From: a virus
Strand: one strand, 5' to 3'
IMG/VR virus record: IMGVR_UViG_3300042196_000409
Length of the DNA: 64,000 bases
Shown here: in pieces, positions 15,184 through 49,058 of the stretch
Numbering within the stretch: the stretch's first letter is position 1
How the letters are laid out: each line of letters starts with the position of its first letter
Translations under genes and position numbers: made by a program
The notes under the pieces: model-generated
Seen by the model: the letters and a program-made list of their open reading frames with translations, nothing else
What the model was told of the DNA's origin: nothing
Databases searched by the model: none

Positions 15184-15201
15184 CGATTGGATGCTGGATA
15201 T

Positions 15202-15310: not shown

Positions 15311-15316
15311 CGACAC

Positions 15317-15389: not shown

Positions 15390-15396
15390 CGATGAC

Positions 15397-15467: not shown

Positions 15468-15476
15468 CGACGGCCT

Positions 15477-15547: not shown

Positions 15548-15555
15548 CGATTCGT

Positions 15556-15629
15556 GGTGTGCGTAGTCATCTGGTGAAGACGCTGGGTTGTGGTCCCAGT
15601 TCAGGCGAGTTCGATCCTCGTCGCACACC
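15556..15629 (+). tRNA. tRNA-His(GTG) with G-1
   Basis: Extra 5' G pairs with C73. Perfect anticodon stem CTGGG/CCCAG. Loop ttGTGgt. Confidence 0.7.
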
Positions 15630-15635
15630 CTGTCT

Positions 15636-15710
15636 CGAGCAGTAGCTTAGCCTGGCTAAAGCGTTGGTCTGGGGGACCAAAGATCGCAGGTTCAAATCCT
15701 GTCTGCTCGA
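15636..15710 (+). tRNA. tRNA-Pro(GGG)
   Basis: Acceptor CGAGCAG/CTGCTCG. Perfect anticodon stem TTGGT/ACCAA. Loop ctGGGgg. Confidence 0.6.
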
Positions 15711-15787
15711 CGAAAGGAGAATGCGGCTGATCTACTGTCAGATCTGTCGCCAAGGAGCGTCTAGTCTACCGAAGGAGAACGAACGTC

Positions 15788-16324
15788 ATGGAGCCGACAC
15801 ATCAAACGCTTGTCCTTAGTCAGGGCTATGAGCCCGTTAAGATCGTTTCGTGGCAGCGCGCGATCACGATGCTCTTCCTCCACAAGGTCGAAGTGATCGA
15901 GGAGTACGATCGCAACATCAAGACGACGTCGTTCGTCGCCAAGATCCCCGCGGTCGTGCGGCTGCTCAAAGCGTTCCGTCGGTACAAGAAGCCGGTGAAG
16001 TTCTCCCGGATCAACATCTACGGCCGCGACAAGTACACCTGCCAGTATTGTGGCGTGAAGAAGTCGATCCACGATCTGACGTATGACCACATCGTGCCTC
16101 GATCGCGAGGCGGCAAGACGACGTGGACGAACATCGCAACGTGCTGCCAAGGCTGCAACGGCAGGAAGGCGAACCGTACGCCCGAGCAGGCCGGCATGCG
16201 TTTGCTCCAGGTGCCCGAGCAGCCAATCTCGTCGCCGGTGCTCGTCGTGACCGTGAGCCGCCAGTCTGCACCCGACGCGTGGCGCGACTACCTGTACTGG
16301 ACCGGCGAGCTGGACCAGGACTGA
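15788..16324 (+). CDS. HNH endonuclease (homing-type, embedded in the tRNA array)
   Basis: CQYCG..DLTYDHIVPRSRGGKTTWTNIATCCQGCNGRK contains the Cys4 zinc knuckle plus the HNH catalytic His/Asn. Confidence 0.8.
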   Translation: MEPTHQTLVLSQGYEPVKIVSWQRAITMLFLHKVEVIEEYDRNIKTTSFVAKIPAVVRLLKAFRRYKKPVKFSRINIYGRDKYTCQYCGVKKSIHDLTYDHIVPRSRGGKTTWTNIATCCQGCNGRKANRTPEQAGMRLLQVPEQPISSPVLVVTVSRQSAPDAWRDYLYWTGELDQD

Positions 16325-16349
16325 TCAAGCGAGCGACGTGCTCGCATCT

Positions 16350-16423
16350 GGGAACGTGGGAGAGATGGAGTCTCCGCCGGCCTGTCACGCCGGAGGTCGC
16401 GGGTTCAAGTCCCGTCGTTCCCG
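16350..16423 (+). tRNA. tRNA-Asp(GTC)
   Basis: Acceptor GGGAACG/CGTTCCC. Perfect anticodon stem CCGGC/GCCGG. Loop ctGTCac. Confidence 0.7.
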
Positions 16424-16528
16424 CCGATAGCGTGGTCGATCACCGCGCGTCGATGACTCATCCTCGCAAGGGGCTCCTTTTTGGGATGCCGCGCACGTCG
16501 AGCGCTCGGCGACGCGGCTGGGTCTTCT

Positions 16529-16599
16529 GGGTCCATCGTTCAAAGGGAGAACGCGGCGTTCGCAATGCCGAAATGCGAGTTCGAGTCTCGCTGGATCCA
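16529..16599 (+). tRNA. tRNA-Ala(CGC)
   Basis: Acceptor GGGTCCA/TGGATCC with G3-U70 Ala identity pair. Loop ttCGCaa. Confidence 0.6.
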
Positions 16600-16618
16600 C
16601 GTTACGTAGTCCTACGAA

Positions 16619-16690
16619 GGGGCTGTCTGTCCAACGGGAAGACGCGCGTCTGGCTGACGCGAGATGACGGTTCGATTCCGTTCAGCTCCA
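16619..16690 (+). tRNA. tRNA-Ala(GGC)
   Basis: Acceptor GGGGCTG/CAGCTCC with G3-U70. Anticodon stem CGCGT/ACGCG. Loop ctGGCtg. Confidence 0.55.
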
Positions 16691-16727
16691 CGATCGCTGC
16701 TCCGCCGTGCGGTGCCTACACGCAACC

Positions 16728-16806
16728 ATGATGCCTCAAGGTGAGGCGTCGGCCTATGGAGCCGAAGCAGTCAGGTTCAATTCCTGATCATCCCGCAAGG
16801 GATCGT
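16728..16806 (+). ncRNA. possible degenerate tRNA-like element
   Basis: T-arm TCAGGTTCAATTCCTGA and hairpin TCGGC-ctATGga-GCCGA are present. No pairing acceptor stem found by eye. Confidence 0.2.
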
Positions 16807-16834
16807 GCACCGTGCACTCGAGCAGCGAACACTT

Positions 16835-17086
16835 TCAGTGGCCATGGCAAGGGCCACGGCAGACCATGCATTCTTCCTCGAAGCTGTCGTCGAGGGTGTC
16901 TGCGCCAGGATGCGGATGGATCACTTCCTCTTCGAGGACGTCTCCAACCAAGGCATCGTTGGTGGTGGTAGCGCAGCGTGGACACAAGAGCATCGATTCA
17001 GCGTGCCGCCACGCCTGGGGGAACTGATCGATGGCGGTGATCTCCTGCGTCTTGCCACAGCGAGCGCACACAACGAATGTCGCCAT
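16835..17086 (-). CDS. small zinc-ribbon protein
   Basis: CARCGK...CPRC and CMVCRGPCHGH Cys clusters. Lies between tRNA genes on the opposite strand. Confidence 0.35.
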   Translation of the reverse strand: MATFVVCARCGKTQEITAIDQFPQAWRHAESMLLCPRCATTTNDALVGDVLEEEVIHPHPGADTLDDSFEEECMVCRGPCHGH

Positions 17087-17134
17087 GCTTCTACGCTACG
17101 TTACCGTCGGTATCACCGACAGTTTTTGGCTCTC

Positions 17135-17207
17135 GGGCAGGCATGTTCCAAGGGGGCGAGCGGGATTTGCAATCCTGCTGCGGCCGGTTCAATCCCGGTC
17201 CTGTCCA
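17135..17207 (+). tRNA. tRNA-Ala(TGC)
   Basis: Acceptor GGGCAGG/CCTGTCC with G3-U70. Loop ttTGCaa. Confidence 0.6.
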
Positions 17208-17415
17208 CGCGTCATGCTTACGCCGGCACCTCGCGATGTCTCCCGGCTCTACTCGGGATCGATTGCGGCGCGCCGACGAGCACAGCCTCGATGTCGGCTC
17301 TATGAGTTACGTCCGGGGCAACTCAAGCGGGCCGTCCGCGGGACTGTCTCCCCCGCTTTGCTAGCCGTTCGCTTGTGCCCGAGGATATCAGACCCAGCTC
17401 CGCGCTGTGTTTCTC

Positions 17416-17486
17416 GCCGCTATCGTCAAACAGTAAGACGCTGCTTTGGTAGGGCAGAAATCCGGGTGCGATTCCCGGTGGCGGCT
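17416..17486 (+). tRNA. tRNA-Thr(GGT)
   Basis: Acceptor GCCGCTA/TGGCGGC. Loop ttGGTag. T-arm CCGGGTGCGATTCCCGG. Confidence 0.6.
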
Positions 17487-17494
17487 CGAATCGA

Positions 17495-17565
17495 TCAGGG
17501 ATCGTCTAACGGTAGGACACGAGATTTTGGATCTCGGCATGAAGGTTCGATTCCTTCTCCCTGAA
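17495..17565 (+). tRNA. tRNA-Gln(TTG)
   Basis: U1-A72 acceptor TCAGGGA/TCCCTGA. Perfect anticodon stem CGAGA/TCTCG. Loop ttTTGga. Confidence 0.7.
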
Positions 17566-17569
17566 CCAT

Positions 17570-17641
17570 GCATGGGTCGCCAAGAGGCTAGGCACTTCTC
17601 TGCAAAAGAAGCACACGCGGGTTCGACTCCCGTCCCATGCT
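17570..17641 (+). tRNA. tRNA-Cys(GCA)
   Basis: Acceptor GCATGGG/CCCATGC. Perfect anticodon stem CTTCT/AGAAG. Loop ctGCAaa. Confidence 0.7.
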
Positions 17642-17645
17642 CCGC

Positions 17646-17720
17646 GCTCCTGACGCCCCATTGGAAGGGGTCTCTGTTTTCTAAACAGATCCGTTGCAGG
17701 TTCGAGCCCTGTCAGGAGCA
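17646..17720 (+). tRNA. tRNA-Arg(TCT)
   Basis: Acceptor GCTCCTG/CAGGAGC. Anticodon stem TCTGT/ACAGA. Loop ttTCTaa. Confidence 0.6.
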
Positions 17721-17729
17721 CGAGATCTT

Positions 17730-17802
17730 GGTCCCGTAGCCTAGTGGACGAGGCACGCGTTTCCTAAACGCGCTCACGCAGGTTCGAGTCCTGCCGGGAT
17801 CA
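17730..17802 (+). tRNA. tRNA-Arg(CCT)
   Basis: Acceptor GGTCCCG/CGGGATC. Perfect anticodon stem CGCGT/ACGCG. Loop ttCCTaa. Confidence 0.65.
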
Positions 17803-17827
17803 CGCACGTCATCATCGTCGACTTCAC

Positions 17828-17898
17828 GCCTCCGTACGTGGACGTGACCCGAGTTTCCGAAGCTTGGTGGGCTGGTTCAAATCCAGCCGGAGGCACCA
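17828..17898 (+). tRNA. atypical tRNA-like gene with encoded CCA (possible 9-nt anticodon loop)
   Basis: Perfect acceptor GCCTCCG/CGGAGGC followed by A-CCA. T-arm GCTGGTTCAAATCCAGC. Core folds only with stem CCGAG/CTTGG around the loop tttCCGaag. Confidence 0.35.
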
Positions 17899-17901
17899 TA
17901 C

Positions 17902-17973
17902 GTCGGTGTCGTTCAATGGTCAGGACCACGGCCTTTCACGCCGTAGATACGAGTTCGATTCTCGTCGCCGATA
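17902..17973 (+). tRNA. tRNA-Glu(TTC)
   Basis: Perfect anticodon stem ACGGC/GCCGT. Loop ctTTCac. T-arm ACGAGTTCGATTCTCGT. Confidence 0.55.
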
Positions 17974-17994
17974 CGATCTTCACGCACGTGCCAG

Positions 17995-18174
17995 CTACAC
18001 GCGTTTCATTTTCTGCGCTGTGTGCAGCGCGACGCTCAACATCCACGAGCTAAGGCCGAGACCCGCATTCTTCGCGGTCTCAGCCAATGCTTTTTTCTGC
18101 GCTTCTGTGACGCGGATGAGGATTCCTTTGTTCTTGCGTCCGGCCTTGCTGCGTTTCGGTTTCTTCGCCGGCAT
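17995..18174 (-). CDS. ribbon-helix-helix (CopG/MobC-like) DNA-binding protein, 59 aa
   Basis: Manual translation MPAKKPKRSKAGRKNKGILIRVTEAQKKALAETAKNAGLGLSSWML.. gives a basic N-tail then a beta-strand/helix RHH pattern. Not in the ORF track (<60 aa). Confidence 0.45.
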   Translation of the reverse strand: MPAKKPKRSKAGRKNKGILIRVTEAQKKALAETAKNAGLGLSSWMLSVALHTAQKMKRV

Positions 18175-18184
18175 GTCGTGATAG

Positions 18185-18325
18185 CGCTTGTATAGCGTTA
18201 AGCGCGCGCTGTCAATCTGACGCCCCGCGCGCGCAGGATTGACTCCGCTTGCGAATGGATATACAAACGCTAGCGTTGAATGACAGGGCGCGAACGCGCC
18301 GTTGTTTGTTTTGCTAGACGAGGTG
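18185..18325. promoter_or_regulatory. divergent promoter region between the RHH gene (-) and the Ro60-like gene (+)
   Basis: Plus strand: TTGACT, 15-nt spacer, TATACA ahead of the 18330 start. Minus strand: TTGACA, 15-nt spacer, TATACA ahead of the 18174 start. GC-rich inverted repeat GCGCGCGC..GCGCGCGC. Confidence 0.35.
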
Positions 18326-18329
18326 CGCG

Positions 18330-20249
18330 ATGACGACAGCAGAGAAGTTGGGACCTGCGGAGAAGATTCTCCAGACGCTCCTGAATCACACGGACCACAT
18401 GGTCCACAACCGTCCCGGCATGGTGTCGCCGGATGCTCGTCACACGATCGGTGTGCGCTGGGTGTTCGTCACGCACAAGGAAGAGAACGGCCAGAAGGTC
18501 GTCTACGAGCTGACGAAGGTCGGCAAGAAGACGAACGAGATCCGCAGGGGCGTGATGCGCGCCGACGGCAAGGTCGAGGAGAACGGCAAGATCGTCGGCG
18601 AGTACCGCTCGCCTGGGCTGTTTCCCGAGGTCGCCGCCTGGATGTATCGCCAGGTCGCTGAGGTGTGGAAGATGGACAACGAGTTCGCGGCGCGCTGGGC
18701 GTCGTACGCGTTTGGCCAGGAGCACCGTGACCTCAAGGTCGTGCTCGCGGCCTTCATGCTCGTGCAGACGCGCAAGGGCGATCCCGTGCTCGACGGGGGC
18801 AAAGTCGCGTTCTACGACGACGACTTCCGCGACATCGGCGAAGCCATGATGCTTATCCACCGTCGGGACGGAAAGGATCTGAGCCCGAAGCTCCTGGTCC
18901 GCGTCCACGACCTTCTGAAGGTGCCGGGCGTCGCGGCCATCAACCGCGAGCTGGGCTTTGGTAACTCGGCGCGTCGCCCGTTCCTTGGCCGTTGGTCGAA
19001 GGCGGTCGAGAAGTGGCTCCAGTTTCGCGAGGAGAACCCCAGGATGCTCGACGGCCTCATCAAGGCCGGCTTCAAGAGTACCGTGAAGGATCTCGCGCGT
19101 ACGGTCGGCTACAAGCCTCAGACCCCGAAGTTCTTCGAGGCCCTCGGCTGGGCACAGGATCAGGCCAAGGACGGCCGGCGCTCGATCCTCATCGGCGTCG
19201 ATCTGGCCAAGGCCGAGACCTGGAACGATCTGACCGAGGCGCAGATCTGCGAGAAGATCGTCACCGAGAAGCCGGGCTGGAAGCGCATCGTCGGTCTCTT
19301 GCCGAAGAAGCTCGGGGTCACGCGCGCCATCATGAGCGCAGCCGTCGAGTCGAACGCGCTGTCCAACAAGGACCTCATCATTCTCACGCCCACGCTGGAG
19401 GAGCTGGGGCTCCTGGAGGTCAAGGAGGTCAAGGCGAAGTGGGAGCGCGCCCTCAAGAAGGCCGAGGACGACATGCGCGCGGGCAACATCGCGCGCAACG
19501 TGAAGTCCAAGGACGTGCAGGAGCAGCTCCAGGGAGCGGCCGACACGGCGCTCCAGAAGACGATGGAGGTGGCGACGCGCAACATGCGTATCTACGTCCT
19601 CATCGACATCTCCAGCTCGATGCAAGGTGCCATCGAGAGGGCGAAGACGCTGCTCGAGAAGTTCCTCCAGGGCTTCCCGCTCGATCGCACACACATCGCG
19701 ACGTTCAACACGGTGGGGCGCGTGATCGAGATCAAGCACGCTTCGGCGGCTGGCGTGGCCCAGGCATTCAAGGGTTTCACTGCCAGCGGGGGCACGACGC
19801 ACGGTGCAGGTGTGATGGCTCTTGCCCCGTTCCCGCCGAAGGAGGACGAAGACACGCTCTTCATCATCGTTGGCGACGGCGGCGAGAACTTGTCGTTCCA
19901 CACCTACGTCGAGCAGTCCAAGCTGCGTCCGATGGCCTTCGGCTTCCTGATGCTGCCTGGTCAGAACTACGGCGCACCGGAGAAGACGGCGGCACAGCTC
20001 GGCATTCCGTGCTTCAAGATCGAGCAGAACACGTTCGACGACGTCTACGCGATCCCGCGGACCATCCGCGCGCTCGTGGCGGCGACGCCGGTCGGTGCCG
20101 TGGCGCGTGCGGCGGCGACGCCGCGTGTGACGCTCGTCGAGACGATCCTCAAGACGGATCTGCTCAAGAAGCCTGCATGGGCGGCGACGGTCCGTGCGAT
20201 CGCCGCAGCGGACGCAGCACCCGCGGCGACGGCCGCGGCGACGGCCTAG
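18330..20249 (+). CDS. Ro60-like protein (alpha-helical TROVE-like N-region + C-terminal vWA/MIDAS domain)
   Basis: vWA MIDAS DISSSMQG..TASGGTTHG..IIVGDGGEN at residues ~415-560. ~410-aa helical N-region. Architecture and size match Ro60/Rsr; the TROVE assignment is inferred. Confidence 0.55.
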   Translation: MTTAEKLGPAEKILQTLLNHTDHMVHNRPGMVSPDARHTIGVRWVFVTHKEENGQKVVYELTKVGKKTNEIRRGVMRADGKVEENGKIVGEYRSPGLFPEVAAWMYRQVAEVWKMDNEFAARWASYAFGQEHRDLKVVLAAFMLVQTRKGDPVLDGGKVAFYDDDFRDIGEAMMLIHRRDGKDLSPKLLVRVHDLLKVPGVAAINRELGFGNSARRPFLGRWSKAVEKWLQFREENPRMLDGLIKAGFKSTVKDLARTVGYKPQTPKFFEALGWAQDQAKDGRRSILIGVDLAKAETWNDLTEAQICEKIVTEKPGWKRIVGLLPKKLGVTRAIMSAAVESNALSNKDLIILTPTLEELGLLEVKEVKAKWERALKKAEDDMRAGNIARNVKSKDVQEQLQGAADTALQKTMEVATRNMRIYVLIDISSSMQGAIERAKTLLEKFLQGFPLDRTHIATFNTVGRVIEIKHASAAGVAQAFKGFTASGGTTHGAGVMALAPFPPKEDEDTLFIIVGDGGENLSFHTYVEQSKLRPMAFGFLMLPGQNYGAPEKTAAQLGIPCFKIEQNTFDDVYAIPRTIRALVAATPVGAVARAAATPRVTLVETILKTDLLKKPAWAATVRAIAAADAAPAATAAATA

Positions 20250-20256
20250 CTTCGTT

Positions 20257-21195
20257 ATGGGGTGGCGCGATTTACTCCAGACGGGCGACGAGAAGGTGAC
20301 CCTTCCGTGGCTTGGCGGCAGGACGCTCTACTCCACTGCGCAGCGCTGGTCGATCGAAGGGCGCCTCCCGAAGGACTACGGGTGGCACACGTTCAAGATC
20401 GCCAACCGGGAAGCTCACGCACAAGGGCCAGCTGATCCGCAACCGGATCTGCTTCAGCATTCCGTGCGCGGTTACCTGGTTGGCGATCGCATCGTCGCGG
20501 ATGACGTCCGTGTCGATCCAGATCCCAAGGGCATCGTGAATTTCTCCGAGACGGTGTTCCTGCTCGACGAGGGCATCGATCGGTTCGCGCGTGTGCGCGC
20601 GGGGCGCATCAACAAGGAGGGCCCGCTGGTCTACCAGGGCCTCGAGATGCCGCTCGGCCAGGAGGACGCCGTGCTCGAAGCTTTCCTCGAACAGAAGACG
20701 TCGGTCGCGGACATCAAGAACGTACCGCCGGGGCTCGATGCGGCATTCCGCATGGAGAGCTGGCAGCGCGCCGAGGCCGAGCGTCGCCGCATCGAGCTGG
20801 AGCGCATCCGTTGTGAAGAGGAGGAGAAGCGTCAGAAGGAGGAGCGTCGCCAGGCGCTCGTGAAGAAGCTCGGGGACGGTGAAGGCCGTCGCGAGATGGC
20901 GCTCCACGACTTCGACGCTGCGGCACGCGCAGCACTCGCGGTGGGCGGCGCGGTCTTCCTCGACGCGAAGTCTGTGCGCAAGAACGAATGGGCGGTCCGC
21001 TACCGTATCGGTAACGACCGCCAGCGGTTCGAGTGCGTGTGCAACGAGCGCCTTCGCATCGTCGACGCGGGCATCTGTCTCGTCAATCACGCCACCGACG
21101 AGAGGGGCGACACTTTCTTCACGCTCGAATCACTCCCAGCCGTCGTGCAGCAGGCGCAGCGCGAGCGACGGCTGGTCATCTTTCGTCACGTGTAA
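20257..21195 (+). CDS. hypothetical protein
   Basis: Internal ATG (MGWRDLL) after an Arg-rich leader. Charged helical middle, ends ..QRERRLVIFRHV. Confidence 0.45.
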   Translation: MGWRDLLQTGDEKVTLPWLGGRTLYSTAQRWSIEGRLPKDYGWHTFKIANREAHAQGPADPQPDLLQHSVRGYLVGDRIVADDVRVDPDPKGIVNFSETVFLLDEGIDRFARVRAGRINKEGPLVYQGLEMPLGQEDAVLEAFLEQKTSVADIKNVPPGLDAAFRMESWQRAEAERRRIELERIRCEEEEKRQKEERRQALVKKLGDGEGRREMALHDFDAAARAALAVGGAVFLDAKSVRKNEWAVRYRIGNDRQRFECVCNERLRIVDAGICLVNHATDERGDTFFTLESLPAVVQQAQRERRLVIFRHV

Positions 21196-21212
21196 GAACC
21201 ACCGGAGGAGTC

Positions 21213-21443
21213 ATGAGCAAACCAAAGTACAAGGTCGGCGACAGCGTTACCATCGACATCGGCTGGGAGCGTGTCGTGCCTCGCAAGGTGCTCATCTCTG
21301 AGGTGCGCGCTGATCACGGCAGACAGGGGGCGCACCGCTATTTTGGAAGTGGTGACGGTGGCGAGCACGGCTTCTACGAAGATCAGATTCTGGTCGAAGG
21401 GCGTGATCGAGTTTCACGCGCGGACTGGGAGGCGCCTCTGTGA
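21213..21443 (+). CDS. small hypothetical protein (76 aa)
   Basis: MSKPKYKVGDSVTIDIGWERVV.. Flanked by a ~45-bp direct repeat that duplicates the 3' end of the upstream gene. Confidence 0.4.
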   Translation: MSKPKYKVGDSVTIDIGWERVVPRKVLISEVRADHGRQGAHRYFGSGDGGEHGFYEDQILVEGRDRVSRADWEAPL

Positions 21444-21506
21444 AGAGGCCGAGCATCGTGCAGCGCGAGCGAAGGCTGGTCATCTTCCGTCACGTGTGAG
21501 CTCACC

Positions 21507-22208
21507 ATGAAGCCCTACTATTTTCGCTCAGGTTTTGGCGACATCGTGCTCGACGATGTTCTCAACAGCACGCCGTGGATCAAGGTCACGGACGCGCGGT
21601 TGGAATGCTTCATGTCGGCACGCACGGAGACGTACACCTACGGCGAAGGCCGCGGCGTTCGGACGTACACGCCCGTTCCGTACTCGCCTCTCGTGGCGGA
21701 CATCCAGCGCCAGCTCAACCGTGACGGCCTGGAGCGCGAGACGCTCGATGACGTCTACATGTACAACGTATGTTTCCTGAATCGCTACGACAACGCGGCG
21801 ATGCAGCTTGGGTGGCACTCGGACGACTCACCGGGGATGGACCACGAGCATCCCATCGCAGTCGTGTCGTTCGGGCAGCCGCGCGAGATCTGGTGGCGTG
21901 AGAAGGGCCAGACCGGAGTCATCCCAGCTGATCAGCGTCAGCTTCTCGAGCACGGCTCCATCTTTGTGATGCCGGCGGGCATGCAGCGCACCCACCAGCA
22001 CCGCATCCCGAAGGGTGACAAGCCGATGGGCTTGCGCGTCTCGCTCACCTACCGGCACTACGACCCCGAAGAGGCATGGCGCGCGACGCACCGTACGCTG
22101 CTTGAGACCGCGAAGTTCGAGACCCAGTCGATGGCTGTCGATCTTCACGTTGAGGTTCACCGCGGCCTTGACGTCGTTCTTGCAAACGCAGCCCAGCCAA
22201 AGGAATAG
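21507..22208 (+). CDS. alkB: AlkB-family 2OG-Fe(II) dioxygenase
   Basis: Fe-binding HxD (LGWHSDD) and distal His (HQHRIP). AlkB-type RVSLTYR 2OG-binding Arg. ~230 aa. Confidence 0.75.
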   Translation: MKPYYFRSGFGDIVLDDVLNSTPWIKVTDARLECFMSARTETYTYGEGRGVRTYTPVPYSPLVADIQRQLNRDGLERETLDDVYMYNVCFLNRYDNAAMQLGWHSDDSPGMDHEHPIAVVSFGQPREIWWREKGQTGVIPADQRQLLEHGSIFVMPAGMQRTHQHRIPKGDKPMGLRVSLTYRHYDPEEAWRATHRTLLETAKFETQSMAVDLHVEVHRGLDVVLANAAQPKE

Positions 22209-22212
22209 GCCC

Positions 22213-22797
22213 GTGAAGTTCTCAGACATCAAGCTCACGGACATCGGCACCACGATCCAGATGGTCGGTGCCGTCTACGCCGACGGAAGTGGCAAGGGCT
22301 ACTACTTCGCCTTTCCGTCGACGAGCGGCGAGGGTGCGAATCCCGAGCACGTCGAGATGACGAACGAGGACTGGAAGGTCATGCTTCGGCAGGCCGACGT
22401 GGTCGAGGTCGAGGCGACGGTGCAGGCCGAGAACGGAGAGCTTCAGAAGGCGATCGTTCGCAAGAGCCAGCGCCAGATCGATTCGCAGGTCTCGTGGAAC
22501 GTCTTTCGGCGGGACAACTTCATGTGCCGTTACTGCGGCACCGAGAAGCTGTCGCTGACGGTCGATCACCTCGTGCGTTGGGAGGACGGCGGTCCTTCGA
22601 TCGAGGAGAACCTTGTCGCGTGCTGCCGAAAGTGCAACAAGGTCCGCGGTGACACGGCGTACGCGGCGTGGCTGCGGCACCCGTACTATCTGGAGAAATC
22701 GCGAAGTGTCTCCGGCGCGTACCAGCAGCTCAACCAGCGTGTTGCCGACACTCTCGCGAACATCCCCCGTGTTCACATCAAGAAGGGCCGCTCATGA
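22213..22797 (+). CDS. fusion protein: unknown N-domain + C-terminal HNH nuclease domain (first gene of the Ubl/JAB/E1 cassette)
   Basis: GTG start. C-terminal CRYCG..LTVDHLVRWEDGG..NLVACCRKCNKVRGD matches HNH. Stop overlaps the next start (ATGA). Confidence 0.55.
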   Translation: MKFSDIKLTDIGTTIQMVGAVYADGSGKGYYFAFPSTSGEGANPEHVEMTNEDWKVMLRQADVVEVEATVQAENGELQKAIVRKSQRQIDSQVSWNVFRRDNFMCRYCGTEKLSLTVDHLVRWEDGGPSIEENLVACCRKCNKVRGDTAYAAWLRHPYYLEKSRSVSGAYQQLNQRVADTLANIPRVHIKKGRS

Positions 22798-23183
22798 TCG
22801 AAGCTGGTGTAGTCATCGACAAGAACGGAAGCCCGCTGTTCTGGCACCTGCCCGAGGGTCGTACCGGAGGGAGCCTTCCCGACAGCCGGACCCTGTGGCA
22901 GGTTCTCTGGGACGCGTTCCAGGAAGACACGCTGCGCGGTTTCGCGCACAGTCACCCGGGCTCCGGCGTTCCCGGCCCCTCGTACTCGGACGTCACGACG
23001 TTCGCGGCCGTCGAGGCCGCGCTCGGCAAGCGCCTCGACTGGTGGATCACCAGCTCGGACCACGTGGTCGAGGTCTGTTGGGCCGGACCGGACAAACTTT
23101 CATACCGCTCCACGATCGTTACGGAGGCACCGTCGTGGGTAGCGGAACTGCGACGCCTCTCTCAGCAAGGACAAGGACAATGA
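22794..23183 (+). CDS. JAB/MPN (JAMM) metallopeptidase
   Basis: JAMM motif HSHPGSGVPGPSYSD (HxHx7Sx2D) with an upstream Glu. ~130 aa. Translationally coupled on both sides. Confidence 0.7.
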   Translation: MIEAGVVIDKNGSPLFWHLPEGRTGGSLPDSRTLWQVLWDAFQEDTLRGFAHSHPGSGVPGPSYSDVTTFAAVEAALGKRLDWWITSSDHVVEVCWAGPDKLSYRSTIVTEAPSWVAELRRLSQQGQGQ

Positions 23184-23521
23184 ACGAGATCAAGGACAAC
23201 GAGGCGCGCGTCAACATCACGTACGGCGGCAAGAACGGCGACCTGCCGGATCCCGTCTTCTTCCAGTCGACGGACGGTGACGTCAAGAATTGGGTCACCG
23301 AGGCAGTCCGTGCCGGCACGGTGCCAGGGCTCGATGCGGCACCGACCGCGGACTTCGGTGACTTTGTCATCGATCGTTTCGCGGCGGACGCGACGCGTCC
23401 CTACAACTTGATCCAGGTCCGGCCGAAGACGCCGTTCGGGTTCGCCTCGTGCGATCACTGCAAGGTGTGCTTCTACCGGGCTCTGGGGCTCGGGTGCTGC
23501 GCCTGCCCGACGAAGAAGTAA
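23180..23521 (+). CDS. small protein, candidate ubiquitin-like/sulfur-carrier precursor (C-terminal ..ALGLG-CCACPTKK)
   Basis: 113 aa. Lies between JAB and E1 genes with ATGA/TAATG overlaps. The C-terminus has Gly-Leu-Gly then a short Cys-rich extension, as in JAB-processed ThiS/Ubl precursors. Fold is unverified. Confidence 0.4.
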   Translation: MNEIKDNEARVNITYGGKNGDLPDPVFFQSTDGDVKNWVTEAVRAGTVPGLDAAPTADFGDFVIDRFAADATRPYNLIQVRPKTPFGFASCDHCKVCFYRALGLGCCACPTKK

Positions 23522-23528
23522 TGCAGCC

Positions 23529-24107
23529 ATGGCCGCCATGATCGTCATCGTCGGCGTCGGAGCTCTGGGCAGTCACCTGGTCCAGTTCATTCGTAACGAG
23601 AAGGTGGACATCCGCATCATCGACTTCGATCGCGTCGAGCAGAAGAATGTGATGTCGCAGTTCCACGGCAAGCCTGGCGTGGGCAAGAACAAGGTCGCTG
23701 CCCTCCAGCAGACGATGGACTTCTTGTTCAAGCGCCAGCTCGCGGTGGTGAGCAACAAGCTCGTCGCCGACAACATCGACGTGCTCATGAAGGGCGCGAC
23801 GCTGGTCGTCGACTGCCTCGACAACGGCGCCTCGCGGAAGCTCGTGCAGGACTACGTGCGCAAGCACAACCTGCCGTGTCTTCACGGCGCGCTCGCTCCG
23901 GGCGGCGAGTTTGGTCGCGCGATCTGGGACGAGAAGTTCGTGATCGACAGCGAGGTCGGTGCGGGTGCGGTGACGTGCGAGGACGGGGAGTTCCTTCCTT
24001 TCATCGCGCTCACGGCCGGGTTCATGGCGCGCTCGATCCAGCTCTTCTTGAAGGAGGAGAAGAAGATCGGATTCTCGATCTCGCCCGTCGGTGTGATCGC
24101 CATCTGA
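23529..24107 (+). CDS. ThiF/MoeB/E1-like adenylyltransferase (short form)
   Basis: Rossmann motif IVGVGALGS. E1-type IIDFDRVEQKNVMSQ (Arg finger and Asp). Ends LPCLHGAL. 192 aa. Confidence 0.65.
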   Translation: MAAMIVIVGVGALGSHLVQFIRNEKVDIRIIDFDRVEQKNVMSQFHGKPGVGKNKVAALQQTMDFLFKRQLAVVSNKLVADNIDVLMKGATLVVDCLDNGASRKLVQDYVRKHNLPCLHGALAPGGEFGRAIWDEKFVIDSEVGAGAVTCEDGEFLPFIALTAGFMARSIQLFLKEEKKIGFSISPVGVIAI

Positions 24108-24301
24108 ACGCTCTTGACAGTGGTTCGTGTAGCCGCTAAGGTCACAACCAGCTCGGCCACCACCCGAGAGTCCTCACAAGCCTTGGGTTCAACTCCCATC
24201 AAATTCCCGCAAGGGGATATGACAGCCAGGCGGTCTTGGCACCTGTCTTGTAAACAGGCTGAAAAGCAACCAGGACTCTCAACTCGGTGGCCAAGTGTTT
24301 T

Positions 24302-24423
24302 GGCGGATAAGGGACGCGGGTCCCACTTCTCTCATAAGGAAGCATCCCGACAGCGGCACTCGTCTTCGCGAGGAGACACCCGTCGAATGTCTACAAGCCG
24401 CTTGGTTCGACTCCAAGATCCGC
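24302..24423 (+). ncRNA. ~120-nt tRNA-like RNA with ~57-nt insertion between anticodon arm and T-arm
   Basis: Acceptor GGCGGAT/ATCCGCC. T-arm CTTGGTTCGACTCCAAG. D hairpin GGGAC-GCGG-GTCCC. Loop ctCATaa. Too long for a canonical tRNA. Confidence 0.3.
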
Positions 24424-24454
24424 CTCTGAGAAGCAGCCATTCCCTAGTGTGCTT

Positions 24455-24526
24455 ACACGCATAGCTCAACGGTAGAGCATCGGCCTACGAAGCCGAAGGT
24501 TGGGACTTCAAAACTCCCTGCATTCA
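24455..24526 (+). pseudogene. degenerate tRNA-Arg(ACG)-like element
   Basis: Canonical D-arm GCTCAACGGTAGAGC and anticodon arm TCGGC-ctACGaa-GCCGA. T-loop is 9 nt and the acceptor strands do not pair. Confidence 0.3.
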
Positions 24527-24567
24527 ACAAAGCACTCTTCACTCGGCTGCCCTCTAATTTCCTGACG

Positions 24568-24598
24568 CAAGAGCCGCGAAAGCGGCTCTTGTCGTTTC
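24568..24598 (+). terminator. rho-independent terminator
   Basis: Hairpin CAAGAGCCGC-GAAA-GCGGCTCTTG followed by TCGTTTC. Confidence 0.55.
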
Positions 24599-25328
24599 AC
24601 GAGTGCGCAGTGTCCCGCGCTATGCTCGATCGCATGGACGGCCACGCCCTTCTCGGACACCTGGCGCTTTGTGCTGGCATCATCGGCGACGGCGGCCCGC
24701 GCGCGTATCGCCGTCGCGGCTCTCCGCTGCTGGAGAAGTATCTGCCTGGCCGTTTCCTTGCTGGACTACGTCCCGAGATTCGCGCTGACGTCGTGCAGGC
24801 CGCGAATACTACGCAGACGTCGCCCGCGCCGTGGTTCTTGCGCCTGGTCGTCGACGAGCAAGAGCACCGCGTCGCGTTGCCTTCGCCGCCGATCGATCGG
24901 CGATGGAGCTGCCGTGGTAGGTGGTCCGCAACACCAGGGATACGGTGAGCTGATCGATGTCACGCATGCCGCTTGTCTCGGTAGTGTTCTACATCGCGAC
25001 GCGCCTCCATCTGGACGGCGATGTCGTGGACGCGAGCATGGTGGAGCTGTTCGGCCGAGCTGGAGTGTATCTCGCGTCACGGCAGCTCGTGGATGACGGC
25101 GTGCACGGAGAGGACACGCGTCCCGAGCTACAGGGCTGAGCGAATGCGGACAAGCGCTCAATGGGCGTTTGGCGCGCTCTTGGACTACTGGGATCGCTGG
25201 AGCTCCGCTCGTCGATCGGTGTGGCTCAAACTTCCGCGGCGTCCTAAATCCGCAGCTCTCACGTTTGCTCTCGCCGCCGTGGCCTCTGTCGCTCCATGCA
25301 CGCCGTTGGTGCGGTACAACCGCTTTCG

Positions 25329-25673
25329 ATGAAGCTCGAGACACATGAAGGACCGATCGCGGGATCGGTGACCGCGGATGTTATCGCTCGAACCGTCGCG
25401 CAGCTCACTGATGTCGGCAAGGCGTACATTATCTTGGATGACGACCGCGATGCCGAGACGTACGTCCAGGCTGCCGGTACCGTCGGTGAGGAGTTCATCG
25501 TCGAGCGTCGTGATGGCTGCGCGGGCGAGCACTACCGGGGTGATCGGCGCGTGACGGCCGACGAGCTGATCACGATGCTCGTCGGCTGCTTGAGCGGTGC
25601 GACGGACTGGAGCCACGGCATCTCGTGGCACCATGTGCGCGTCGACTTCGGCGCTGCGAACGCGAACGCGTAG
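25329..25673 (+). CDS. hypothetical acidic protein
   Basis: Internal ATG (MKLETHEG..). Asp/Glu-rich and protein-like. Confidence 0.4.
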   Translation: MKLETHEGPIAGSVTADVIARTVAQLTDVGKAYIILDDDRDAETYVQAAGTVGEEFIVERRDGCAGEHYRGDRRVTADELITMLVGCLSGATDWSHGISWHHVRVDFGAANANA

Positions 25674-25731
25674 TTGTCGATCCCGGCATGTTCCGCTTTG
25701 GAAGCTAGCTCTTAGACAGGATTGACAGCGG

Positions 25732-26052
25732 TTGCCGCCGTCACTACGTTTTGCAGCGACTTGGGAGAACGCTAAATTGCTCGTCGTCGACGTCGCCGTT
25801 GGCATCGCAATTCTTGGCCTCCTAACGCTGGGAGCTGGCTTCTTGGCCGCCCTGCGCAAGAAGCAGAAGGACAAGGATCCACGGACTCAGGGCGAAGCGG
25901 CTCGCGCGAAGGGCGAGCTGAACGCGCAGCGCATGGAAGTCAACGATGCGATGCGCTGCACGATGTGCGGCAAGGACACGAATCCAGACGTGGACCTGTA
26001 CACCAACAACGTGTGGTGGCATCGCGCCTGTTACCGAAGCGTCATCAGCTGA
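25732..26052 (+). CDS. small membrane protein with C-terminal Cys/His cluster
   Basis: TM segment LLVVDVAVGIAILGLLTLGAGFLAAL, then RKKQKDKD, then CTMCGK..WWHRACY. Confidence 0.4.
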   Translation: MPPSLRFAATWENAKLLVVDVAVGIAILGLLTLGAGFLAALRKKQKDKDPRTQGEAARAKGELNAQRMEVNDAMRCTMCGKDTNPDVDLYTNNVWWHRACYRSVIS

Positions 26053-26056
26053 AAGG

Positions 26057-27004
26057 ATGAGAATGCGAAACAATCAGCGGGGCAGCGTTACGTTGTATGC
26101 AATCGGGGCCGTCGGCGTGATCGGCGGTTTGATCATAGGCATGATCACGTGCGCGAAGCTCGAACAGATTGATCCTGGTCACGTGGGTGTATCGGTCAAG
26201 AAATGCGGCGGCGGCGGCGTCAGCGCTGAGCCCATCCCGACCGGCTACTACTGGCGAGAGCTGTTCTGCGAGAAGGTTGTCGAGTACCCGATCTCCATGC
26301 AGAGCCTCATTCTCACCAAGAGCCCGCACGAAGGTGGCAAGTGCAATCCGAGCGACGGCAGCTGTGATGAGAGCATCATGGTTACGTCGTCGGAGGGCCT
26401 GAACATCAACCTTGATGTGGCGCTGAACTTCACTTTGGACGCCAAGCAGGTGCCAAAGATCTACGAGCGCTGGCGGTCCGATATTGAGGACATCTCGCAC
26501 AAGTACATCCGGCAGACGATCCGGGAGTCCCTTCAGCTGACGTTCGCCAAGTCGACTGCGGAGGAGCTGTACTCGACGAAGAAGGAGATCGCTCGCATCG
26601 AAGCCGAGAAGATCATCCGCGAGAAGCTCGAACCGATGGGCTTCATGATCTCGCAGTTCACCATCAATCGCATCGAGCCGCCAAAGCAGGTCATTGACGC
26701 GATCAACGCCAAGGTTGCCATGGTTCAGGACGCGCAGAAGTCGGAGCAAGAGGTGCGCAAGAAGACGGCCGAGGCTGCGCAAAAGGTCGCCACTGCCAAG
26801 GGCGATGCCGATGCGGTGGAAGCGGCTGCGAGGGGCGAGGCTGCATCCATTACGATGCGTGCCGAGGCGCAAGCCAAGGCGAACAAGCTGCTGAGTGAAT
26901 CGATCACCCCGAACCTCATCCAGTACGAGCAGGCCAGGAAGTGGGACGGTAAGCTGCCCAGCACGACCGGCGGTGTCGTTCCGTTCCTCAACGTCAACAA
27001 GTAG
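26057..27004 (+). CDS. SPFH/Band-7 (prohibitin/HflC-like) domain protein
   Basis: N-terminal TM segment. Band-7 core ..IYERW..DIEDISHKYIRQTIRESLQ. C-terminal Ala/Lys-rich coiled coil. Confidence 0.65.
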   Translation: MRMRNNQRGSVTLYAIGAVGVIGGLIIGMITCAKLEQIDPGHVGVSVKKCGGGGVSAEPIPTGYYWRELFCEKVVEYPISMQSLILTKSPHEGGKCNPSDGSCDESIMVTSSEGLNINLDVALNFTLDAKQVPKIYERWRSDIEDISHKYIRQTIRESLQLTFAKSTAEELYSTKKEIARIEAEKIIREKLEPMGFMISQFTINRIEPPKQVIDAINAKVAMVQDAQKSEQEVRKKTAEAAQKVATAKGDADAVEAAARGEAASITMRAEAQAKANKLLSESITPNLIQYEQARKWDGKLPSTTGGVVPFLNVNK

Positions 27005-27011
27005 GCGGCTG

Positions 27012-27251
27012 CTACGCGAGAGCTGGATCGCACACGTGTGGTGGCGCGCGATCCACGACGACTGCTTCCGGCGCTCCGAGCTTGCAGGCTTCGCAGATCG
27101 CCTTGTCGGCCTGGAGCTGAGCGATGCATGCCGGACACGTGACCTTGCTACGTAAGCAGGTCAACTCTTCCGATAGAAGCTCGTCGATCGTGAGGCCGCA
27201 GCCGATGATCGCGCTCGGGTAGTACCAGTGCTTGTCGCGCGTTTCCGTCAT
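27012..27251 (-). CDS. small Cys-rich protein
   Basis: CGLT..CLRSKVTCPACI..CEAC pattern in 79 aa. Confidence 0.35.
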   Translation of the reverse strand: MTETRDKHWYYPSAIIGCGLTIDELLSEELTCLRSKVTCPACIAQLQADKAICEACKLGAPEAVVVDRAPPHVCDPALA

Positions 27252-27442
27252 CGCGCAAGAACGTAAGCAACAGCTGCGGCGCGCGCAACAAGGGCGCTTG
27301 ACGTGCGCAGCGCCTTGCGCTACACGTGAATCTCCTCGATGCGCTCGTTTCGCTTACCAGCTCGACTTCGCTCGCTACGCTTGCCGGCTTGAGGCAGGCG
27401 TAGCTCGCAGCATGTCTTGAGCCGGCGTAGCGCAACGCAGCC

Positions 27443-27523
27443 GCGTCAATGGTGGAACAAGCAGACACGGTGCTCCTAAAAAGCACTGCTCATGGCATGA
27501 GGGTGCAAATCCCTCTTGACGCA
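27443..27523 (+). tRNA. tRNA-Leu(TAA), type II
   Basis: Acceptor GCGTCAA/TTGACGC. Perfect anticodon stem GTGCT/AGCAC. Loop ccTAAaa. 12-nt variable-arm hairpin. T-loop TGCAAAT. Confidence 0.6.
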
Positions 27524-27530
27524 CGTTTCC

Positions 27531-27607
27531 GTCGCGATAGCCCAACTGGAAGCGGCAGTGGTCTGAGGGGCCATTCAGTGCGGGTTCGAATCCCGCTCGC
27601 GACACCA
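27531..27607 (+). tRNA. tRNA-like gene with encoded CCA (anticodon not resolved by eye)
   Basis: Perfect acceptor GTCGCGA/TCGCGAC plus A-CCA. T-arm GCGGGTTCGAATCCCGC. Confidence 0.4.
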
Positions 27608-27626
27608 TCAAGGAAGGAGGAGCCCC

Positions 27627-28187
27627 ATGACGCAGCAAGTTTGGTTCACGAGCGACACTCATTTCGGCCACACGAACATCGTGAAGTACAGCGGGCGTCC
27701 GTGCGCTGACGTGCACGAGATGAACGAAGCGCTCGTCCTCAACTGGAACGCGGTCGTGAAGCCCGGCGACCTCGTGTATCACGTCGGCGACTTCGCGCTC
27801 TGCGACGTCGAGGCCGCGACGAAGATCGTGAAGCGCCTTGCAGGCCAGAAGTACCTCGTGTTTGGAAACCACGACAAGGCGCTGCGCAAGGACAAGATCT
27901 TCCTCGGGCACTGGATCTGGGCGAAGGACATGGCGGACATCACGGTCGGATCGCAGCGCATCGTGCTCCTGCACTACGCGATGCGCGTGTGGAACCAGAG
28001 CCACCGTGGCGCTTGGCAGTTGCACGGACACTCGCACGGTTCGCTCAAGGAGGAACCGCACTTGCTCCAGGCGGACGTCGGCGTGGACTGCTGGAACCAA
28101 CGTCCGGTTTCGTTCGAGGAGCTCGTCACGAAGATGGCGACGAAGAATTATCAGCCCGTCGATCATCACGGGCGTCAAGACGAGTGA
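27627..28187 (+). CDS. calcineurin-like metallophosphoesterase
   Basis: Motifs DTHFGH, GDF, GNHD, GHSHG in canonical order. 186 aa. Confidence 0.75.
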   Translation: MTQQVWFTSDTHFGHTNIVKYSGRPCADVHEMNEALVLNWNAVVKPGDLVYHVGDFALCDVEAATKIVKRLAGQKYLVFGNHDKALRKDKIFLGHWIWAKDMADITVGSQRIVLLHYAMRVWNQSHRGAWQLHGHSHGSLKEEPHLLQADVGVDCWNQRPVSFEELVTKMATKNYQPVDHHGRQDE

Positions 28188-28214
28188 CTGATCGAACTCC
28201 GCCTAGTACGTTTC

Positions 28215-28290
28215 GCCGACGTAGCCCAACTTGGTAGCAGGCAATGCGCTTAGATCGCATCCAGTGCTGGTTCAAATCCAGTCGTCGGCA
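28215..28290 (+). tRNA. class-I-shaped tRNA with Leu anticodon TAG
   Basis: Acceptor GCCGACG/CGTCGGC. Perfect anticodon stem ATGCG/CGCAT. Loop ctTAGat. 5-nt variable loop. T-arm GCTGGTTCAAATCCAGT. Confidence 0.5.
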
Positions 28291-28424
28291 CGATGAAAAA
28301 AGAAAGCCTACTCGCGTCGACGTCGCACATGCACTACTGGCGGCCCGAGGGGGCGGGTGTTCGTGCAGAGGCGCGACGATAGCTTTCGGCTTGCAGTGAC
28401 CTTCGCAGACAGCTCTGACACCAC

Positions 28425-28501
28425 GTCGTCGTGGTCCAACGGGTAGAGGCGTCCCGCTCAAGACGGGAAAGTTGCGGGTTCAAATCCCGCCGACGACACC
28501 A
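28425..28501 (+). tRNA. class-I-shaped tRNA with Leu anticodon CAA, encoded CCA
   Basis: Acceptor GTCGTCG/CGACGAC. Perfect anticodon stem TCCCG/CGGGA. Loop ctCAAga. 5-nt variable loop. T-arm GCGGGTTCAAATCCCGC. Confidence 0.5.
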
Positions 28502-47547: not shown

Positions 47548-47910
47548 GGGTGGAGGCGAGGGGAGTCGAACCCCTGTCCGAAGATGCATCCGAACGAACT
47601 TCTACGCGTGTAGGGCGCTGTTTGTGGTCTCGAACTCGACGGTAGCGACCGACCTGCGAGTTCAACGAGCTGACGAATCTCGATCTCCGTGTGTCAGCGC
47701 TTCAGGAGATCCAGCCTGATTGTGGCGGTGCTTCGTGGCTACAGACGGAAGCTACGAGCACCGTCGTCGAGCCTGGTGTTCAGGCTGCGGCGAGAGCAAC
47801 AGCGCCGTTGTTGTCGTTCGCAGTTGCAGGTTTGCCCATTTTTACGTGGCCTTGGGCGCCACGACGCGCGATCCGAACTTTCTCATCCTCGTCGAAACCG
47901 GTACGCCCCC
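47548..47910 (-). ncRNA. ssrA: tmRNA (SsrA), tag ANDNNGAVALAAA
   Basis: Minus strand starts GGGGGCGUACCGGUUUCGACGAGG (tmRNA 5' consensus). Tag ORF GCG AAC GAC AAC AAC GGC GCU GUU GCU CUC GCC GCA GCC UGA at nt ~93-134. 3' T-arm AGGGGUUCGACUCCCCU plus acceptor CGCCUCC pairing the 5' end with G3-U70. Confidence 0.8.
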
Positions 47911-48181: not shown

Positions 48182-48270
48182 GGCAGGGAAGGTCAGTCAG
48201 GTGACGACGGCGCTCTCGAAAAGCGTTTGCCCCTAAAAAACGGGGTCGGGTTCGAGTCCTAGTCCTGCCA
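48182..48270 (+). tRNA. tRNA-Ser(CGA), type II
   Basis: Acceptor GGCAGGG/TCCTGCC. Anticodon stem GCGCT/AGCGT. Loop ctCGAaa. Long variable hairpin CCCC-taaaaaa-CGGGG. Confidence 0.55.
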
Positions 48271-48275
48271 CGAAT

Positions 48276-48360
48276 GGAAGGCGAGTCCGTGCGGGTGCTG
48301 GAAGTCGTTTGCTAAACGACGTGCCGTGAAAGCGGCCGGGTTCGAGTCCCCCGTCTTCCG
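48276..48360 (+). tRNA. tRNA-Ser(GCT), type II
   Basis: Acceptor GGAAGGC/GTCTTCC. Perfect anticodon stem GTCGT/ACGAC. Loop ttGCTaa. Variable hairpin GCCG-tgaaa-CGGC. Confidence 0.55.
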
Positions 48361-48373
48361 CGGAGGCAACATC

Positions 48374-49058
48374 GTGAATGCATCATCATCTGATTCTGTC
48401 GTCGTCGAGGTCCGCGCGGCCGAGGGTGGCGCAGACGCCAAGCTCCTCGTGCTTGAGCAAGTGAAGATCTACCTGCGTCTCTGCACGCGGAGGTCTCTTT
48501 AGCGTCGAGATAGTAGAAGATCGGCCCGGCATCGCTGTGCTCTGCGTCGCGGGTCGCGGCGCCGCGGCACTGTTCGCGGGGGAGTGCGGTGGTCACCGAT
48601 GGCAGCGCGTGCCTGAGACCGAGAAGCGTGGACGTGTGCACACGAGCACGATCACCGTTGCGGTGCTTGAGGAGCCACGGCACGTCGAGCTGACGATCCG
48701 CCCCGAGGACGTCGACATCGAGACGATGCGTGGCTCCGGTGCCGGCGGCCAGCACCGGAACAAAACGGACTCGGCCGTGCGCGCACGTCACCGGCCGACC
48801 GGGATCGAGGTCCGCTGCGAGTCCGAGCGATCTCAGCATTTGAACCGCGAGCTCGCGCTGCGGGTCCTCGCCGCGCGCGTCGCGGAGCGGGCGCGATCGG
48901 CGGCGCAGGGAGAGCGCGATGCCGATCGTCGTCGGCAGCTCGGGTCTGGCATGCGCGGCGATAAGCGGCGAACAATTCGAACGCAGGACGACCAGGTGAA
49001 CGATCACGTCGACGGCCGGACGTGGCGATACAAGTCGTACGCGCGTGGTGACTGGTAG
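48374..49058 (+). CDS. prfH: PrfH-like class-I release factor homolog (GGQ), ORF split by a +1 frameshift at CTT-TAG-C
   Basis: Frame A 48374-48499 gives ..[31 protein letters not shown] then TAG. Frame +1 from 48501 gives [67 protein letters not shown] (PrfH-like). GGAGG lies 3 nt upstream of CTT TAG C, the geometry of the prfB frameshift site. Confidence 0.65.

Follow-up and report, generated by a model that had tools for sequence, protein, structure and literature searches.

In bacteria, the synthesis of release factor 2 (RF2) is known to be controlled by recoding. Its gene, prfB, carries the sequence CUU UGA C with a Shine-Dalgarno (SD) element 3 nt upstream, and a +1 frameshift at this site provides autoregulation (PMC3711429, PMC12421855, PMC10885494). 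Bacterial CUU-stop +1 cassettes have been recorded only for prfB (PMC10885494, PMC3711429), so far the sole known case of a bacterial release factor controlled by recoding. For prfA, the gene of release factor 1 (RF1), recoding has not been reported (PMC12421855, PMC5009743); a UAG/RF1 counterpart was considered unknown in a 2016 review of recoding (PMC5009743), and a 2025 survey of 12,753 genomes found neither a programmed frameshift in prfA nor a TAG in the prfB motifs (PMC12421855). Among viruses, the nearest precedent comes from Mimivirus and Megavirus, whose eRF1-type gene combines CUU UAG C or CUU UAA C with readthrough (PMC3521657). The papers on huge phages and on recoded phages list RF1 and RF2 genes without mention of a frameshift (PMC7162821; 10.1101/2021.08.26.457843). 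Here, we describe a gene at positions 48374-49058 of a 64,000-nt stretch of viral DNA (the window in what follows) from IMG/VR record IMGVR_UViG_3300042196_000409, in which an RF1-like reading frame is interrupted by a cassette of the prfB kind with UAG as its stop codon.

Our reading of the gene is that an accessory RF1-type factor is placed under the control of a termination sensor of the prfB type, with self-limiting feedback, and we assign this reading a probability of roughly 0.6. That programmed +1 frameshifting as such takes place is considered highly probable. No prior description of this release factor family was found in the literature, the subscription-only part of which lay outside the search. 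The collections of phage and plasmid records contained mainly canonical prfA and prfB or unannotated records, and no annotated precedent.

The recoding site and its conservation

The organization of the gene is given in Table 1. The cassette GGAGG-TCT-CTT-TAG-C occupies positions 48489-48503, exactly with the geometry described in an earlier note on this DNA. Skipping of the single base T48500, by a +1 shift on CTT, joins the two open reading frames (ORFs) into a product of 227 aa. ORF0 encodes the strand and helix of RF1 domain 2, including the AEGGADA tip. The family median for the length of this ORF is 39 codons, and the N-termini of the homologues begin at the same place. The gene starts 15 nt after a transfer RNA (tRNA)-like gene, which leaves no space for an RF domain 1. 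The fused product can be aligned to single-ORF homologues without any gap, with RLCTRRSL at the junction facing KLAARRGLDVELVEERSG. No downstream stimulatory RNA structure beyond expectation was detected after the site of the window (minimum-free-energy z-score 0.56), and prfB is likewise devoid of unusual RNA structure 3' of its site. Over 221 nt that include the junction, the Logan assembly of run SRR12684493 (L249) matches the window with 100% identity; the two may stem from a single sample.

Table 1. Position and properties of the features discussed in the text (window coordinates; locus names for the last row)
Feature	Position	Strand	Remarks
ORF0	48374-48502	+	GTG start, 42 sense codons, then in-frame TAG 48500-48502
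ORF1 (+1 frame)	48501-49058	+	185 codons plus TAG 49056-49058; rest of domain 2/4, domain 3
Initiation SD GGAGG	48362-48366	+	7 nt ahead of GTG 48374; read from sequence
Internal SD-like stimulator CGGAGG	48488-48493	+	Codons Arg-Arg; 3 nt 5' of the slippery codon (GGAGG = 48489-48493)
Spacer TCT	48494-48496	+	3 nt; in the family, sequence variable and length fixed (junction table)
Slippery P-site codon CTT (Leu)	48497-48499	+	Expected re-pairing of peptidyl-tRNA-Leu to TTT 48498-48500
A-site stop TAG and following C	48500-48503	+	Tetranucleotide UAG-C; C = 48503
PET tripeptide (RF1-type PxT "anticodon")	48612-48620	+	Loop nearly invariant across the family
GGQ peptidyl-tRNA hydrolysis motif	48744-48752	+	Invariant in the alignment of homologues; Pfam RF-1 domain 101.5 bits
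tRNA-Leu(GAG), element-encoded	27531-27607	+	ARAGORN; reads CUU, would slip to UUU; role proposed from the prfB mechanism
tRNA-like gene with long variable arm (Ser type)	48276-48359	+	Rfam tRNA-Sec model 34.9 bits, below gathering score; missed by ARAGORN; anticodon loop by eye GCT
tRNA-Ser	48182-48271		Upstream neighbour; Rfam tRNA-Sec model (48182-48269) likewise below gathering score
Transfer-messenger RNA (tmRNA)	47548-47910	-	Rfam 173.6 bits; tag peptide ANDNNGAVALAAA
RtcB remnant	42792-44404	-	N-part (ORF 42908-44404) = Pfam positions 12-209; 53-aa piece = positions 380-426, in another frame, overlapping the end of the N-part
HNH endonuclease gene adjoining the RtcB remnant	41879-42328	-	
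In-frame stop at the frameshift codon of the window	L002-L004, L016, L024, L032, L037, L040-L043, L046-L048, L055, L057, L061, L085, L086		TGA; TAG in L085

Loci with related genes, 244 in number, were collected from viral contigs, metagenomes and species-representative genomes and analysed by tblastn with the fused protein; naive ORF picking in GC-rich chromosomal loci is unreliable and was not used. A metagenome scan gave at least 516 confirmed relatives. The +1 frame change at residue 42/43 is present in 201 of the 244 loci. CTT directly precedes the frame-0 stop in 200 of these 201 shifted loci, a recurrence that coincidence falls far short of explaining, and the base after the stop is C in 165 of them; the stop itself can be TGA, TAG or TAA. 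Among 184 non-redundant frameshift genes, CTT-T is invariant (184/184), CGGAGG stands 3 nt upstream in 113, and GGAGG or GGGGG is found at the 3-nt spacing in 123. Calculated for frame 0 upstream of the junction, the entropies of the three codon positions in these genes are 0.79/0.70/1.49; for the +1 frame downstream of it, they are 1.27/1.02/1.72. Since the third position is the most variable in frame 0 before the junction and in the +1 frame after it, both halves are under purifying selection, each in its own frame. CTT and AGG are minority codons in the other genes of the window (14.5% of the Leu and 8% of the Arg codons, respectively), and their invariance thus reflects selection on the RNA sequence. 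The earlier note had asked whether homologues share the junction and had weighed a programmed site against a coincidental pseudogene or an indel. About 200 independent loci, with selection in the right frames on both sides, support the programmed site.

The family also reveals a systematic annotation error. A protein search returned about 100 close homologues (70-97% identity), each annotated with a length of 171-219 aa and matching residues ~42-227 of the query only, and more distant homologues (58-64% identity) that cover 96-99% of it. The +1-frame ORFs that run upstream through the junction read GG(L/V)F(D/S), which implies NTT-TGA-C or NTT-TAG-C in frame 0. Gene callers split the genes (entries P0001-P0120; calls in L245-L248) into an ORF of 39-42 aa and another of 171-219 aa, and some of the called +1 ORFs bear spurious N-terminal extensions. 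In public annotation, the proteins are named "peptide chain release factor-like protein" or "peptide chain release factor 1" and are N-terminally truncated; the NCBI and JGI names contain no hint of recoding. Hundreds of entries are affected.

The homologue L014 (Ga0334722_10018711) is encoded by a single ORF. Its junction, CGGAGGTGTCTTGAC, differs from the cassette by the lack of one T and retains both the SD and CTT. Judged from this sequence, L014 represents an apparent secondary loss of the recoding site.

The protein product

The product contains the C-terminal half of the PCRF domain and the RF-1 domain of Pfam. Among the NCBIfam models, RF1 ranks first (208.7-210.4 bits), followed by RF2 (130 bits) and PrfH (TIGR03072, 105 bits against a curated cut-off of 166.65). 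The curated cut-offs of the full-length RF1 models TIGR00019 and NF001859 (423.25 and 400) are not reached, the score being about half of the cut-off and the match spanning model positions 102-314 of 347 only. The best sequence matches in the PDB are RF1 structures (E = 1e-48; PrfH, E = 3e-17). The product can be aligned to residues ~83-308 of the solved RF1 structures, continuously across the junction. It starts at the equivalent of RF1 residue ~83-110, depending on the species, and domain 1 is absent. In RF1, it is domain 1 that contacts the L11 stalk and RF3.

RF1 and the product have almost the same decoding loop, QRVPxTExxGRxHTST, and both the PxT tripeptide (here PET) and the GGQ motif are present. 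The C-terminus is short and ends in RGDW. An AlphaFold2 model of the fused protein was predicted with confidence, its mean predicted local distance difference test score being 87.7. When compared by Foldseek, this model gives template-modelling (TM) scores of 0.85-0.88 to ribosome-bound RF1, ~0.8 to RF2 and 0.62 to PrfH, and the junction lies in a loop between the helix 20-39 and the strand 43-50.

Based on the ranking of the hidden Markov models, the PDB matches, the decoding loop and the superposition of the model, the product corresponds to RF1 domains 2-4 and not, as the earlier note had proposed, to a PrfH-like protein. By sequence and predicted fold, it is an RF1-type class-I release factor without domain 1. 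The gene is also not prfB itself, because it encodes an RF1-like protein and has its stop, a UAG, at codon 43 within domain 2. ArfB, which consists of a stand-alone GGQ domain with a basic C-terminal tail (~140 aa, at least 100 bits expected), was rejected as an identity, with 35.5 bits on the GGQ segment only. Neither a second RF gene nor a detached domain 1 was found within the window. A truncated RF1 without domain 1 has been reported to be functional (PMC1586002).

Stop identity and the proposed sensing of termination

The proposed mechanism, by which alone the 227-aa product could be made, follows that of prfB. Ribosomes would start at GTG 48374, translate 42 codons and pause once CUU occupies the P site and UAG-C, a context of poor termination, has entered the A site. 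The GGAGG at 3-nt spacing would pair with the anti-SD of the translating ribosome, forming a duplex that favours forward movement. When the decoding of UAG is slow, peptidyl-tRNA-Leu would re-pair from CUU to UUU, AGC would be read next and the full factor would be made. With plentiful UAG-decoding (RF1-type) activity, translation would stop after the 42-aa peptide. As the product has an RF1-type loop, it should read UAG and UAA and close a negative feedback loop, which would make the gene the RF1-type counterpart of prfB autoregulation, and its yield should vary inversely with UAG-decoding activity. For the window gene, self-limiting feedback is the simplest reading, because an RF1-type loop in the product is combined with UAG in the gene. 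About 46% of the putative genes of the window end in TAG or TAA, which fits a use for an RF1-type factor.

Across the family, the stop codon is not constant. The 201 shifted loci use TGA in 139 cases (69%), TAG in 55 (27%) and TAA in 7 (3%), and the stop switches at least 43 times within the frameshift set on a rough neighbour-joining tree of 221 non-redundant proteins. Even the close relatives of the window gene (81-86% identity) are divided, with TAG in L005, L008 and L165 and TGA in L006 and L007. No correlation of stop identity was found with GC content (p = 0.28) or with the source of the sequence. The decoding loop is nearly invariant in the family, with PPT, PPN or PET as tripeptide. 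This free switching without a matching change in the decoding residues indicates that the identity of the stop is not a fixed design feature. The suggestion that the site is tuned to RF1 or UAG therefore describes the window gene, which has both the UAG and the RF1-type loop, but does not extend to its relatives.

The stop itself counts for more than the way in which it is bypassed. In-frame stops are carried by 30 of the loci first classed as continuous. In 20 of these, the stop is located at residue 42/43 and the ORF goes on in the same frame, mostly as TGA followed by CTN or ATG. One of the 20, L107, was flagged as a probable misclassified frameshift locus, leaving ~19 secure cases (Table 1). 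On the neighbour-joining tree, the in-frame-stop relatives form a few clades nested among the frameshift genes; cleanly continuous genes number only ~10 and are scattered. From their sequences, the ~20 relatives apparently use programmed readthrough at the same codon. An alternative genetic code was also considered for the in-frame stops and rejected: an ORF-lengthening test gave no excess over the controls and no sign of TGA recoding, the terminal-stop control being a weak one since ORFs had been defined with all three stops.

As the in-frame-stop relatives keep the stop without a frame change, the conserved element of the family is a stop codon at a fixed position, which is what a termination sensor predicts. 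At the family level, the stop probably acts as a sensor of termination capacity, and the capacity sensed may include that of host RF1 or RF2. More broadly, these genes may constitute a large and unrecognised family of accessory RF1-type factors without domain 1, present in huge phages and Myxococcota and gated by a termination sensor at a fixed codon that is made interchangeably as a +1 frameshift (UGA, UAG or UAA) or as in-frame readthrough. We hold this broader view tentatively, at somewhat less than even odds.

A basal group of relatives (L144, L145, L155, L223, L231 and L239, and also L150, L160, L222 and L237) has an in-frame TGA ~10 codons downstream of the usual stop (G-TGA-CTN). One of them, L231, is plasmid pTMH.W2_2 of the cultured, standard-code Cupriavidus sp. 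TMH.W2. The low-GC loci L150, L222 and L237 contain one (L222) or two (L150 and L237) internal TGAs, and their neighbouring genes end only in TAA; on this sequence pattern, these three may be truly TGA-recoded.

Several observations weigh against a self-limiting sensor. An RF1-type factor should not read UGA, the stop used by 69% of the shifted loci. No coupling was found between the stop identity and either the third tripeptide residue, T or N (Fisher p = 0.09), or the H/Q position (Fisher p = 1.0). About a third of the members have no good SD at the 3-nt spacing. In addition, the slip mechanism is drawn from prfB by analogy, and the codon specificity of the product and the feedback are likewise inferred. 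Given the UGA majority and the at least 43 uncoupled switches, strict self-autoregulation cannot hold family-wide unless the factor reads all three stops. Either the factor does so or the sensor reports host RF2, and this is the main uncertainty of our reading.

The most serious competitor is a programmed frameshift without self-autoregulation. The stop would then report the capacity of host RF1 or RF2, or simply set a fixed low yield, and synthesis of the factor would set in once termination in the host weakens, for instance late in infection or under stress. The mixture of stops and its frequent switching beside an almost invariant RF1-type loop speak for it, as do the readthrough-type variants, which hold the stop at the same position, and, as a hint at a back-up module for translation, the location of the genes among tRNAs and tmRNA on contigs of huge phages. 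However, the combination of UAG and an RF1-type product in the window makes self-feedback unavoidable if the product is active, and there is no obvious logic in sensing UGA while making an RF1-type product unless the factor reads all stops. We regard this explanation as possible, though unlikely. The remaining competitors are much weaker. A split gene, in which a 42-aa N-terminal fragment is followed by a separately initiated C-terminal fragment with GGAGG as the ribosome-binding site for re-initiation, would account for the strong SD just 5' of the junction, for the two ORFs predicted by gene callers and for the ATG directly after the stop in some readthrough-type relatives. Yet the first start codon in the +1 frame of the window is GTG 48537, 12 codons past the junction, and residues 43-55, which form a strand of the fold, are conserved; most homologues have no start codon near the junction, and the invariance of CTT would be left unexplained. 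A split gene is thus very improbable.

The PrfH-like identity proposed in the earlier note, with ribosome rescue and a role beside RtcB in ribosome or RNA repair, fares slightly worse still. Domain 1 is absent as in PrfH, and an RtcB-like ORF (42908-44404) does lie ~4.0-5.5 kb upstream of the gene (4.5 kb in the earlier note). The score and the fold nevertheless place the product with RF1, its tripeptide is PxT and not the SxY of PrfH (PMC1586002), and the RtcB-like ORF is on the opposite strand, not adjacent, and only a remnant, internally deleted with ~170 residues missing. An RtcB-like gene occurs within 3 kb of the RF gene in only 3 of the 244 loci, so that the supposed pairing falls away, and no conserved operon partner was found by all-against-all clustering of the flanking ORFs (no neighbour in more than 12 loci). 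Breakage of an ordinary ORF, by a pseudogene mutation or a sequencing or assembly indel in the TTT run, has even less in its favour. The frame change would indeed result from one surplus T in CTTT and the single-ORF form exists in L014, but the same cassette recurs in nearly every shifted locus, in hundreds of independent samples and in complete genomes, selection acts on both sides, the rare codons CTT and AGG are invariant and the junction is identical in L249; the chance of such a breakage is negligible. Least credible of all is transcriptional slippage on the T run, restoring the frame in the mRNA. The site does contain TTT, but three T in a row fall far short of what productive slippage requires, and the conserved stop, the C after it and the fixed spacing of the SD are marks of frameshifting by the ribosome. 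With the conserved cassette, selection in two frames, gap-free homologues, L014 and L249, sequencing error, pseudogene and transcriptional slippage are excluded for practical purposes.

Genomic setting and comparison with described systems

The window encodes 43 tRNAs and a tmRNA. The tRNAs together cover nearly all amino acids, and 37 of the 43 genes are located in 13084-28501, mostly in dense arrays; no suppressor tRNA is present among them. About 34% of the putative genes end in TAG (24/70), which is high for DNA of 62% GC. ARAGORN also predicted tRNAs with a 4-nt anticodon (8-nt loop: tata, gatg, catc, taac), at 41391-41464 (-) in the window, at 8176-8253 and 8479-8554 in the related contig L245 and at 6255-6328 and 6553-6628 in L247. 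These calls recur beside tRNA-Ile genes in the element of the window and in related huge-phage contigs. In L245 (502 kb), a tmRNA with the tag ANDNGAVARAA is found ~9 kb from the RF gene.

The GC content of the window is even (60-63%), and its largest ORFs are not structural genes. Close homologues of the RF gene are located on contigs of 430-500 kb with mostly hypothetical genes, together with dihydrofolate reductase, ribonucleotide reductase, a phage zinc-binding domain, tRNAs and tmRNA. This content and the many relatives in IMG/VR make a huge phage the most likely nature of the element, with a megaplasmid as the alternative. Chromosomal copies exist in Myxococcota (Minicystis rosea, Archangium gephyra, Pyxidicoccus fallax and many metagenome-assembled genomes), with no tRNAs nearby.

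What this family suggests is that huge phages exert control over translation termination and that Myxococcota possess a third, unstudied release factor. With its three stops, the family amounts to a mutagenesis series made by nature, in which the influence of stop identity and context on +1 frameshifting can be studied, and a compact genetic sensor for RF1 activity could be built from the UAG version. If the broader view of the family given above is true, it would be the first RF1-type analogue of prfB autoregulation, yielding a back-up terminator when the termination capacity of the host drops, and also the first natural case in bacteria or phages of the long-hypothesised release factor gene controlled by readthrough.

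Among the described systems, PrfH (also RFH), a domain-1-less paralogue of RF2 that is paired with RtcB2, resembles the product in its lack of domain 1, its GGQ motif and its size of ~200-230 aa. It differs by the SxY motif, by an obligatory upstream rtcB that is co-oriented and translationally coupled, and by having no known frameshift (PMC1586002). Canonical RF1 and the RF1 and RF2 of phages share the PxT and GGQ motifs and the RF1 fold, and the factors of huge phages and stop-recoded phages are similarly encoded in huge-phage genomes beside tRNAs and tmRNA (PMC7162821; bioRxiv 10.1101/2021.08.26.457843). In contrast to canonical RF1, the window protein lacks domain 1, and its C-terminus is shortened, with RGDW as the last residues.

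Like the window gene, Mimivirus R726 and Megavirus mg280 are virus-encoded release factor genes that need recoding (Jeudy et al. 2012, PMC3521657). Those, however, are eukaryotic/archaeal-type eRF1 homologues of viruses of amoebae, in which both events occur in one gene and no SD element is present. The family described here is of the bacterial RF1 type and has one event per gene, frameshift or readthrough depending on the lineage.

The closest likeness is to prfB, with the same SD-like element, 3-nt spacer, CUU, stop and C in the gene of a class-I release factor, and with a stop codon as sensor. The window gene encodes an RF1-type paralogue without domain 1 instead of RF2. Its site lies at codon 43 in domain 2, a position not homologous to codon 26 in domain 1 of prfB, and the same cassette has arisen, or been transplanted, at a new place. 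Its stop is UAG, never seen in prfB (PMC12421855), and its family uses all three stops interchangeably. What is new is the gene family, the position and the stop usage; the mechanism is a known one.

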